A program made the translations under genes and the position numbers. From positions 184,202,001-184,266,000 of the forward strand of contig NC_042997.1 in assembly GCF_006345805.1 (NCBI RefSeq): a stretch of DNA of 64,000 nucleotides, given 5' to 3'. The notes beneath the pieces are model-generated. The model searched no databases. It had not been told where the DNA came from and saw only the letters and a program-made list of their open reading frames with translations. Position 1 is the first letter of the stretch; each line of letters opens with the position of its first letter. This stretch comes from Octopus sinensis (lineage: Eukaryota). This document shows positions 43,932 to 46,606 of the stretch, one piece after another.

Positions 43932-46606
43932 AGTATTTTATTTATATCCCATCGAAAGTTCTACTGAAGAAGGAATATATCTTTTTTATAAGATTAAGTC
44001 CGAAATTGATTCAATATAGAGATAACGAAATTTAAATTTTCTAAAGGTTAGTTGCCCGTTTTCAGTTTCAATTTTCCTGTAACAAGCGGATTATAAGTGG
44101 ATAAACCAGTGTATTTGGCTTTAGAATAACCCTCTTTAGCCCTTAATTATATGATGTATACTACAACCGTAACGGTTTTTTAAAATATACTGCCCACGCT
44201 TCCTGATGAATTCCTTTGCTGTAGAGTAAGGGACTTCATCCTATATTGCTTAGTAGTAAACTCGATGCTTGCTACAGGAGGACTGGTAACCATTACAATT
44301 TGTAGCGGCGAAAAGTCTGGACGTTGTTTTCTGAGGCTGACCAAAGAATTTTTATTTTTAGATATAAGTGATGTACTCAAGTGTAGTTATGTTTTTAGCT
44401 TGTGCTTTTTCCATGATCATACGTGAGTATTTTATTTATATCCCATCGAAAGTTCTACCGAAGAAGGAATATATCTTTTTTTATAAGATTAAGTCCGAAA
44501 TTGATTCAATATAGAGATAACGAAATTTAAATTTTCTAAAGGTTAGTTGCCCGTTTTCAGTTTCAATTTTCCTGTAACAAGCGGATTATAAGTGGATAAA
44601 CCAGTGTATTTGGCTTTAGAATAACCCTCTTTAGCCCTTAATTATATGATGTATACTACAACCGTAACGGTTTTTTAAAATATACTGCCCACGCTTCCTG
44701 ATGAATTCCTTTGCTGTAGAGTAAGGGACTTCATCCTATATTGCTTAGTAGTAAACTCGATGCTTGCTACAGGAGGACTGGTAACCATTACAATTTGTAG
44801 CGGCGAAAAGTCTGGACGTTGTTTTCTGAGGCTGACCAAAGAATTTTTATTTTTAGATATAAGTGATGTACTCAAGTGTAGTTAGGTTTTAGCTTGTGCT
44901 TTTTCCATGATCATACGTGAGTATTTTATTTATATCCCATCGAAAGTTCTACCGAAGAAGGAATATATCTTTTTTTATAAGATTAAGTCCGAAATTGATT
45001 CAATATAGAGATAACGAAATTTAAATTTTCTAAAGGTTAGTTGCCCGTTTTCAGTTTCAATTTCCTGTAACAAGCGGATTATAAGTGGATAAACCAGTGT
45101 ATTTGGCTTTAGAATAACCCTCTTTAGCCCTTAATTATATGATGTATACTACAACCGTAACGGTTTTTTAAATATACTGCCCACGTTCCTGATGAATTCC
45201 TTTGCTGTAGAGTAAGGGACTTCATCCTATATTGCTTAGTAGTAAACTCGATGCTTGCTACAGGAGGACTGGTAACCATTACAATTTGTAGCGGCGAAAG
45301 GTCTGGACGTTGTTTTCTGAGGCTGACCAAAGAATTTGTATTTTTAGATATAAGTGATGTACTCAAGTGTAGTTATGTTTTTAGCTTGTGCTTTTTCCAT
45401 GATCATACGTGAGTATTTTATTTATATCCCATCGAAAGTTCTACTGAAGAAGGAATATATCTTTTTTATAAGATTAAGTCCGAAATTGATTCAATAGAGA
45501 TAACGAAATTTAAATTTTCTAAAGGTTAGTTGCCCGTTTCAGTTTCAATTTTCCTGTAACAAGCGGATTATAAGTGGATAAACCAGTGTATTTGGCTTTA
45601 GAATAACCCTCTTTAGCCCTAATTATATGATGTATACTACAACCGTAACGGTTTTTTAAAATATACTGCCCACGCTTCCTGATGAATTCCTTTGCTGTAG
45701 AGTAAGGGACTTCATCCTATATTGCTTAGTAGTAAACTCGATGCTTGCTACAGGAGGACTGGGTAACCATTACAATTTGTAGCGGCGAAAGGTCTGGACG
45801 TTGTTTTCTGAGGCTGACCAAAGAATTTTTATTTTTAGATATAAGTGATGTACTCAAGTGTAGTTATGTTTTTAGCTTGTGCTTTTTCCATGATCATACG
45901 TGAGTATTTTATTTTATCCCATCGAAAGTTCTACTGAAGAAGGAATATATCTTTTTTTTAAGATTAAGTCCGAAATTGATTCAATATAGAGATAACGAAA
46001 TTTAAATTTTCTAAAGGTTAGTTGCCCGTTTTCAGTTTCAATTTTCCTGTAACAAGCGGATTATAAGTGGATAAACCAGTGTATTTGGCTTTAGAATAAC
46101 CCTCTTTAGCCTTAATTATATGATGTATACTACAACCGTAACGGTTTTTAAAATATATGCCCACGCTTCCTGATGAATTCCTTTGCTGTAGAGTAAGGGA
46201 CTTCATCCTATATTGCTTAGTAGTAAACTCGATGCTTGCTACAGGAGGACTGGTAACCATTACAATTTGTAGCGGCGAAAGGTCTGGACGTTGTTTTCTG
46301 AGGCTGACCAAAGAATTTTATTTTTAGATATAAGTGATGTACTCAAGTGTAGTTATGTTTTTAGCTTGTGTTTTTCCATGATCATACGTGAGTATTTTAT
46401 TTATATCCCATCGAAAGTTCTACTGAAGAAGGAATATATCTTTTTTTATAAGATTAAGTCCGAAATTGATTCAATATAGAGATAACGAAATTTAAATTTT
46501 CTAAAGGTTTTGCCCGTTTTCAGTTTCAATTTTCCTGTAACAAGCGGATTATAAGTGGATAAACCAGTGTATTGGCTTTAGAATAACCTCTTAATTATAT
46601 GATGTA
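43932..46606 (+). repeat. Tandem array of ~490-bp units (about 5.4 copies), each with a type I hammerhead; retrozyme-like
   Basis: Near-identical units; hammerhead cores start at 43964, 44458, 44952, 45444, 45934 and 46423; array embedded in (TA)n. Confidence 0.9.
43959..44021 (+). ncRNA. Type I hammerhead ribozyme (unit 1 of the array)
   Basis: ttcta-CTGAAGA-A-gga...tcc-GAAA-ttga(t)tcaa-TA-tagag: stems I, II and III and all core nucleotides present; predicted cleavage after 44016. Confidence 0.8.

Follow-up and report, generated by a model that had tools for sequence, protein, structure and literature searches.

Retrozymes, tandemly repeated units that carry a hammerhead ribozyme, are already known from animals, and it has been conjectured before that their circles are copied by Penelope-like enzymes. 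Circles have been demonstrated in coral, mussel and axolotl, and Penelope-like helpers have been proposed, in the consulted part of the description of the metazoan elements (Cervera and de la Pena 2020, PMC7229834), while the corresponding part of a 2020 review states that no motif reveals the helper (PMC7761336). In vertebrates, a survey describes units of 51–972 bp that are related to Penelope terminal repeats and suggests that they were amplified locally (Li et al. 2026, bioRxiv 10.64898/2026.07.22.740005). Cleavage was seen there in one of nine constructs, with eight of nine Xenopus retrozyme dimers left uncleaved in vitro. For an anole Penelope element (PAc), uncleaved RNA was used in vitro and the ribozyme was dispensable (Frangieh 2024, PMC11167929). 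The giant squid genome paper, in the portion available, lists 235 hammerhead-1 hits without analysis (PMC6962438). A literature search on octopus and cephalopod hammerheads and retrozymes and on Penelope twin priming, which covered the main texts of mostly open-access papers, returned no account of the family described here and no analysis of ends and haplotypes of this type.

The array considered here lies in a 64,000-nucleotide stretch of the Octopus sinensis genome (contig NC_042997.1, positions 184,202,001 to 184,266,000), which we call the window; its unit defines what we call family A. By the genomic definition it is a non-LTR retrozyme, with cleavage and circles predicted. Like the metazoan non-LTR retrozymes, family A consists of non-coding tandem units with one type I hammerhead each, present as dimers to multimers; its GC content is below 45% (34%), its predicted circle is well paired, and Penelope-like elements occur in the same genome. 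The units run head to tail without an internal domain, and no LTR-type layout was seen. Unlike those retrozymes, it has a unit of 495 nt, above the ~170–400 nt given for invertebrates in the consulted part of PMC7229834. (The initial annotation had taken the unit to be longer than known retrozyme monomers, which does not hold, since 495 bp falls inside the 51–972 bp published for vertebrates in bioRxiv 10.64898/2026.07.22.740005.) Circles have been observed for metazoan retrozymes, whereas family A is known here from the genome alone; on the other hand, insertion-end anatomy and within-array haplotypes are analysed here and not in the retrozyme papers, as far as the consulted parts of PMC7229834 and bioRxiv 10.64898/2026.07.22.740005 go. 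The element itself is unsurprising, but its many insertions lend themselves well to a natural test of the hypotheses of a circle template and a Penelope helper.

The array and its hammerhead motifs

A tandem array of ~5.4 non-coding units of ~490 bp, spaced 489–494 bp apart and embedded in (TA)n, had been annotated initially, and all of this was confirmed: TRF gives a period of 491 and 5.4 copies with 98% matches, the measured spacings are 494, 494, 492, 490 and 489 bp, (TA)n is present on both sides, and the longest stop-to-stop frame in the array is at most 99 aa. No tRNA gene was found in the unit. Elsewhere, most copies of family A have a unit length of 494–495 bp. The array had been said to start about 30 nt before the first ribozyme, and position 43932 is indeed 32 nt upstream of the first core; this is a mere point of 5' truncation, however, and the defined boundary of the insertion is its 3' end at 46604–46608. 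The features are as follows.

43837..43931, no strand: (TA)n target, 5' side
43932..46608, plus strand: whole insertion, a 5'-truncated tandem array of ~5.4 monomers of family A (TRF, motif spacing, locus comparison)
43959..44021, plus strand: hammerhead 1, type I, canonical core; predicted cut after 44016
44017..44511, plus strand: one cut-to-cut monomer, 495 nt, 34% GC, predicted circle; reference copy
44150..44177, plus strand: TATA-like internal counterpart of the main-end site, then a small predicted hairpin (44165–44177)
44200..44255, plus strand: internal counterpart of the zone of "tail" ends (+184 to +239; end mapping at other loci)
44423..44429, plus strand: splice-donor-like GTGAGTA, ~30 nt before the hammerhead (alignment of family copies)
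44453..44516, plus strand: hammerhead 2, core CCGAAGA (U4C); predicted cut after 44511
44947..45010, plus strand: hammerhead 3, core CCGAAGA (U4C); predicted cut after 45005
45439..45500, plus strand: hammerhead 4, lacking the TA at the cleavage site, fails the descriptor
45929..45991, plus strand: hammerhead 5, canonical; predicted cut after 45986
46418..46481, plus strand: hammerhead 6, canonical; predicted cut after 46476
46600..46608, plus strand: main 3' end, at +140 to +144 from the cut and bordering on (TA)n (end mapping); inferred start of reverse transcription
46609..47066, no strand: (TA)n target, 3' side

The pairing of the small hairpin across families is weak (66%). The tail end zone provides the second 3' end at other loci, and there only where the insertion is inverted; the splice-donor-like site reads GTAAGT or GTGAGT in most aligned sister-family copies. 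Just upstream of the array, in the same (TA)n, lies a decayed mariner-type transposon with terminal inverted repeats (42601–43832, minus strand; Transposase_1 match, E 4.9e-12); it was rejected as part of the retrozyme and is a separate element. A tandem-repeat scan of the window also found short arrays of 169–217 bp at 6369–6800, 14698–15068 and 25155–25795, which we take to be similar to SINE-type repeats.

Six hammerheads with the core CTGAAGA had been claimed for the array. Six hammerhead-like motifs are present at the right spacing (cores at 43964, 44458, 44952, 45444, 45934 and 46423), but only three are canonical, and the two consecutive units of the array that hold complete type I hammerheads are units 5 and 6. 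The loss of TA in hammerhead 4 is either a mutation or an assembly error. Across the family A copies examined, 223 of 238 cores are canonical. Hammerhead 1 has a stem I of 5 bp, an unpaired A before stem II and a near-palindromic stem III, and its predicted cut falls after the ATA at 44016, where the initial annotation had placed it. An Rfam search of the array gave no hammerhead match even at E<=5, and so none above the gathering threshold. A hammerhead descriptor that the unit satisfies was satisfied by none of 5000 dinucleotide shuffles of it, so the motif is not a chance occurrence. The initial annotation had regarded minimal hammerheads of this sort as typical of Penelope-like elements and of metazoan non-LTR retrozymes, and the unpaired base between positions 9 and 10.1 (here an A), the G10.1–C11.1 first pair and the palindromic helix III agree with Penelope terminal repeats as described in the consulted part of Cervera and de la Pena 2014 (PMC4209133).

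Is the fold maintained? Thirteen natural copies from five families (A and its sister families B, C, E and F) were aligned (alignment A1), and RNAalifold, run without an input structure, arrived at all three stems (I–III), with changes that affect both sides of the pairing. When the family A structure was imposed on the alignment, 85.5% of cells paired, as against 76.3% in shuffles (0/500 shuffles, a figure that is not a probability, as the five families are related and independent changes are few) and at most 62% when the same structure was slid along the alignment; stem I was 96.9% and stem III 100% paired. Conservation of the hammerhead fold by compensatory changes across the sister families is thus supported, as judged from this alignment. 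In folding predictions, stem III does not fold alone but pairs at -6.7 kcal/mol between two copies, and stem I has a probability of ~3% in the circular monomer, which predicts that multimers would be cleaved and that the monomer would be stable. The circular monomer also folds better than shuffles (z -3.8, 60 shuffles), as does the linear monomer (z -3.86). A second conserved structure, with some compensatory changes, surrounds the main RT start site (alignment columns 265–357, window ~44105–44190) and is a candidate enzyme-binding element.

Dispersal and insertion ends

Dispersal over many (TA)n loci with variable copy number, raised in the initial annotation as a point to check, is borne out, with 0.4 to 17 units per locus, and the unit is no single-locus satellite. 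A one-unit query gave 271 matches within the 40 scored of 975 candidate places, on many chromosomes, and the 150 matches listed are 96–100% identical. A 30-nt half-hammerhead occurs exactly 341 times genome-wide, and exact junctions between the main end and (TA)n 172 times, which corresponds to at least 170 insertions. By these matches, family A is a young dispersed family. (A genome search with guessed motifs returned family A copies alone.) Assembled contigs 95–99% alike to window positions 43932–44920 occur in runs under two organism labels, so family A may span more than one species label.

There are also at least four older sister families of retrozyme-like elements, B, C, E and F, ~65–80% identical to A (loci L121–L152 and L169–L209). 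Family B was reached through similarity to a segment in locus L105, and the other three through separate leads. For family B there are 5167 candidate places, of which the 40 scored are 88–94% identical to the query, and its period in L130 is 479 bp. A 706-bp period in L172/L173 was rejected as a unit and reflects local duplication. Locus L172 further contains (1140–1370, minus strand) a hammerhead-like repeat unrelated in sequence to family A, with a CCGACGA core, a palindromic stem III and an upstream GTGAGTA, which ends in (TA)n.

The insertions were studied at 67 loci, made up of 39 distinct top-scoring loci and 28 chosen by short motifs (L043 was dropped as a duplicate of L042, L033 and L034 were merged, and in the end analysis one copy of the local duplication was kept for L228 and L229). 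Forty-one are uninverted and 26 are head-to-head. In all 41 uninverted loci, the 3' end lies at +143 to +149 after the cut and runs into (TA)n, at +144 in 37 of them, and the 5' ends fall at any phase of the unit, a variable 5' truncation. Twenty-four of the 26 head-to-head loci have a main end (+135 to +144) on one side and a tail end (+184 to +239) on the other; L065 (112/308) and L225 (65/239) depart from this pattern. The tail end was found in none of the uninverted loci, and two main ends in none of the inverted ones. The tail of family A usually measures 80–95 nt, with a range of 40–95 nt past the main end, and the sister families B, E and F end at two homologous sites. Target-site duplications cannot be read, as the ends fall inside (TA)n.

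An inverted 5'-truncated copy with a tail on one end is the structure of Penelope-like elements, according to the consulted parts of Craig 2021 and Arkhipova 2013; the tail is delimited by two internal start sites of the RT, and the Penelope enzyme cuts AT-rich DNA on both strands (Frangieh 2024, PMC11167929). The fixed 3' end, truncation, inversions and tails of family A match this structure and its two start sites, and from this match we strongly infer that family A was mobilised by a Penelope-type enzyme. Re-insertion by a Penelope RT had been proposed initially, and the genomic part of that proposal is supported by ends that bear the Penelope signature. With the endonuclease-positive Penelope-like elements (Penelope/Poseidon and Neptune), in the descriptions consulted, family A shares the AT-rich target, the internal fixed 3' end, the inverted 5'-truncated copy, the tail on one end and a splice-site-like signal near the ribozyme (PMC4209133, PMC3846280, PMC11167929 and Craig 2021). 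Unlike Penelope-like elements, it has no ORF, and its tail is usually 80–95 nt rather than 30–40 nt.

The template of reverse transcription

What kind of RNA was copied? Of the 93 arms, 85 extend over one cleavage site or more; 55 of all arms span at least two such sites and 21 at least five, and a single 5' end falls within 5 nt of a cleavage site. At the cleavage site, 228 of 239 copies have the same junction, and length variants (indels) occur there at a rate of 3.3%, as against 4–37% at six control sites. Since copying began ~140 nt past the cut, inserts of 140 nt would be expected from a linear RNA that had been cleaved; arms that cross cut sites seamlessly imply that the template was either an uncleaved multimer or a circle closed without a scar. 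We also rejected, as the principal route, template jumping on cleaved linear monomers, since neither scars nor 5' ends are in excess at the cut.

Haplotypes were compared in 167 full units from 39 arrays. Variants fixed within an array numbered 38, as against 1.06 in 2000 shuffles (maximum 7). Most arrays have one haplotype, with 16 haplotypes among the 39, and 15 of the arrays carry variants fixed in at most two arrays; such private variants are present in up to 10 of 10 pieces of an array. The array in the window has four array-fixed variants, three of them private. At inverted loci, both arms have the same haplotype in all 18 informative cases (eight were uninformative; one unit of L046 has a further change at the marker), and array-private variants are common to both arms in L057, L058 and L226. 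In L050, one of eight units has another haplotype. (An apparent sharing of 90C/166A was rejected as an alignment effect near homopolymer gaps, mostly gone once the gaps were masked.)

Array-specific haplotypes are also what would be expected if solo Penelope terminal repeats or monomers had been inserted and had then grown locally as minisatellites by unequal crossing-over, as Li et al. 2026 proposed for vertebrate retrozymes. Local duplication does act on family A: units 2 and 3 of the window array have two variants in common, L033 shows repeated unit patterns, and L228 and L229 bear witness to it as well. However, opposite arms are often both multi-unit with a common haplotype, a fixed 3' end goes together with 5' ends at any phase, and variants within an array are mostly confined to single units, which deviate from their array haplotype by ~0.25% per site. 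Local growth as the origin of the arrays is accordingly disfavoured and very unlikely, and these observations argue against purely local satellite growth for family A.

A more serious alternative keeps the element and the Penelope-type helper but takes as template a long uncleaved multimeric transcript of a homogeneous array, the hammerhead being slow or serving another step and no circle being made. Such a template accounts equally well for the fixed 3' end, the inversions, the tails and the seamless junctions; uncleaved RNA is the main substrate used for PAc in vitro (PMC11167929), and most of the vertebrate retrozymes tested were uncleaved (bioRxiv 10.64898/2026.07.22.740005). It would also accommodate a weak clustering of 5' ends at +326 to +337 (10 of 93 arms; 6/500 simulations), possibly the place where a linear transcript begins. 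On the other hand, with a multimeric template the private variants carried by every unit in 15 of the 39 arrays must have been fixed in a separate step from monomer to array, arrays could only get shorter with each round, and compensatory changes maintain the hammerhead fold. Nor is there an excess of inherited unit-specific variants: those common to different arrays number 10, as against 9.4 +/- 2.7 by chance, and so give no sign of inheritance from multimeric parents, in a comparison of low power in which some variants are assembly errors. No convincing parent–daughter pair, with a variant that is unit-specific in one array and fixed in another, was found among the arrays compared. We regard the uncleaved multimer as an unlikely template, if one to be taken seriously, and, given mobilisation by a Penelope-type enzyme, consider a circle the probable one.

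The explanation that we favour as a whole, with somewhat less assurance, is that family A is a dispersed hammerhead retrozyme written into (TA)n, probably from a likely 495-nt circle, by a Penelope-like RT/GIY-YIG enzyme acting in trans. Tandem transcripts would cleave as hammerhead dimers, and the monomers would be ligated. The endonuclease would nick (TA)n, and the nick would prime at a TATA-like site ~140 nt after the cut, whereupon the RT would roll round the circle until it drops off, leaving a multi-unit array with a variable 5' end. In 26 of the 67 loci, the opposite strand of the target seems to have served as primer at a second site, usually 40–95 nt further on the same template, giving the inverted arm, and some arrays would have been lengthened later by local duplication. 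Against this reading we count the three non-canonical motifs among the six in the window, the mixed haplotype of L050, the local duplication seen in the window array and in L033, the cluster of 5' ends, the failure to find a helper or parent in 131 locus records, and the in vitro results on PAc and Xenopus.

The more specific statement, that family A is a genomic recording of Penelope rolling-circle reverse transcription of a ribozyme-made circle, with up to nine rounds per array and inversions twin-primed by the two target strands at two distinct, never identical, sites on the same RNA, seems to us slightly favoured. If true, it would give direct genomic support to two steps, the circle template and the Penelope helper, that were proposed from co-occurrence and similarity, and would point to a cis region of ~240 nt. 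The footprint of the reaction, that is, the start site, the second start site and the single-template arrays, would then be preserved in a young family of many loci.

Penelope-like coding elements in the same genome

GIY-YIG matches are abundant (147 of the 150 scored, of 5029 candidates). Loci L105 and L103 hold frames of 781 and 775 aa, each with RT and GIY-YIG and with an ORF1 upstream; the RT match in these frames has an E of about 1e-6, just under the Pfam cut-off. They may be called "Neptune-type" on the strength only of their C-terminal GIY-YIG and their CxxxxCxxC linker, which is as in Neptune/Nematis elements. Several two-ORF families with RT and GIY-YIG are young, with open frames, and have the same (TA)n target and end pattern as family A: they end in (TA)n, 45–140 nt past their own hammerhead-like motifs, with tails and inversions. 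Young autonomous Penelope-like elements thus coexist with family A, as they do with non-LTR retrozymes. Together with the candidate intact enzymes of the same genome, family A offers a compact substrate for the question of circle versus uncleaved multimer in Penelope biology.

Could the unit simply be a terminal repeat that belongs to a Penelope element with coding capacity, seen in copies that are 5'-truncated or mis-assembled? The layout of splice-donor-like site, hammerhead, main end and tail is that of a Penelope terminal repeat, and 6 of the 67 loci have Penelope coding fragments no more than a few kb away. However, past the tail the sequence enters the next unit and no ORF, none of the 67 copies is continuous with an RT/GIY-YIG frame, the nearby fragments being set apart by (TA)n or flank, and each array has its own private haplotype, which a collapsed assembly would not create. 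This possibility, named in the initial annotation as one that would speak against a retrozyme, is largely refuted for the sampled loci and is very improbable.

Unlike what is found in Penelope-like elements, no parent with a homologous repeat accompanies family A in the 131 Penelope-like locus records (some places fetched twice), which are a small part of the 5029 GIY-YIG candidates; the matches in these records are inserted copies of the sister families B and E. Thus L105, which had looked like a coding element bearing a homologous hammerhead repeat, was rejected as a parent: the segment concerned is missing from other members of its family and is a nested family B copy inserted in (TA)n. The same applies to L174/L210 (family E beside an endonuclease fragment), L306 and L213, likewise rejected as nested insertions in (TA)n. 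Searches based on ORF1 gave further Penelope-like families and no parent of family A.

The coding elements have some features of their own. Hammerhead-like motifs in the autonomous families (L106:2339 and 7069; L299:2028 and 6394; L102:6663; L318:1811 and 6083) have U3–A8 (TTGANAA; often) or CCGAAGA cores and a palindromic stem III, with stem I weak in some. Canonical-core motifs with a GAAACTCGAGT stem III also occur at L103:7021 and L074:2621 (both plus strand), unlinked to the neighbouring ORFs. Canonical endonuclease-positive Penelope-like elements have a single ORF, according to the consulted part of Craig 2021. In L105 (2474–6174), L106, L110 and L299–L318, an ORF1 of ~440–495 aa overlaps ORF2 (RT and GIY-YIG) in the -1 frame at a T-rich site, which suggests a programmed frameshift. 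Finally, the 3' UTR of the coding element in L105 (6340–6810) contains repeated ATTGG and TGACGTC motifs and a TATA-like box, and is likely to be a promoter in the terminal repeat of that element.
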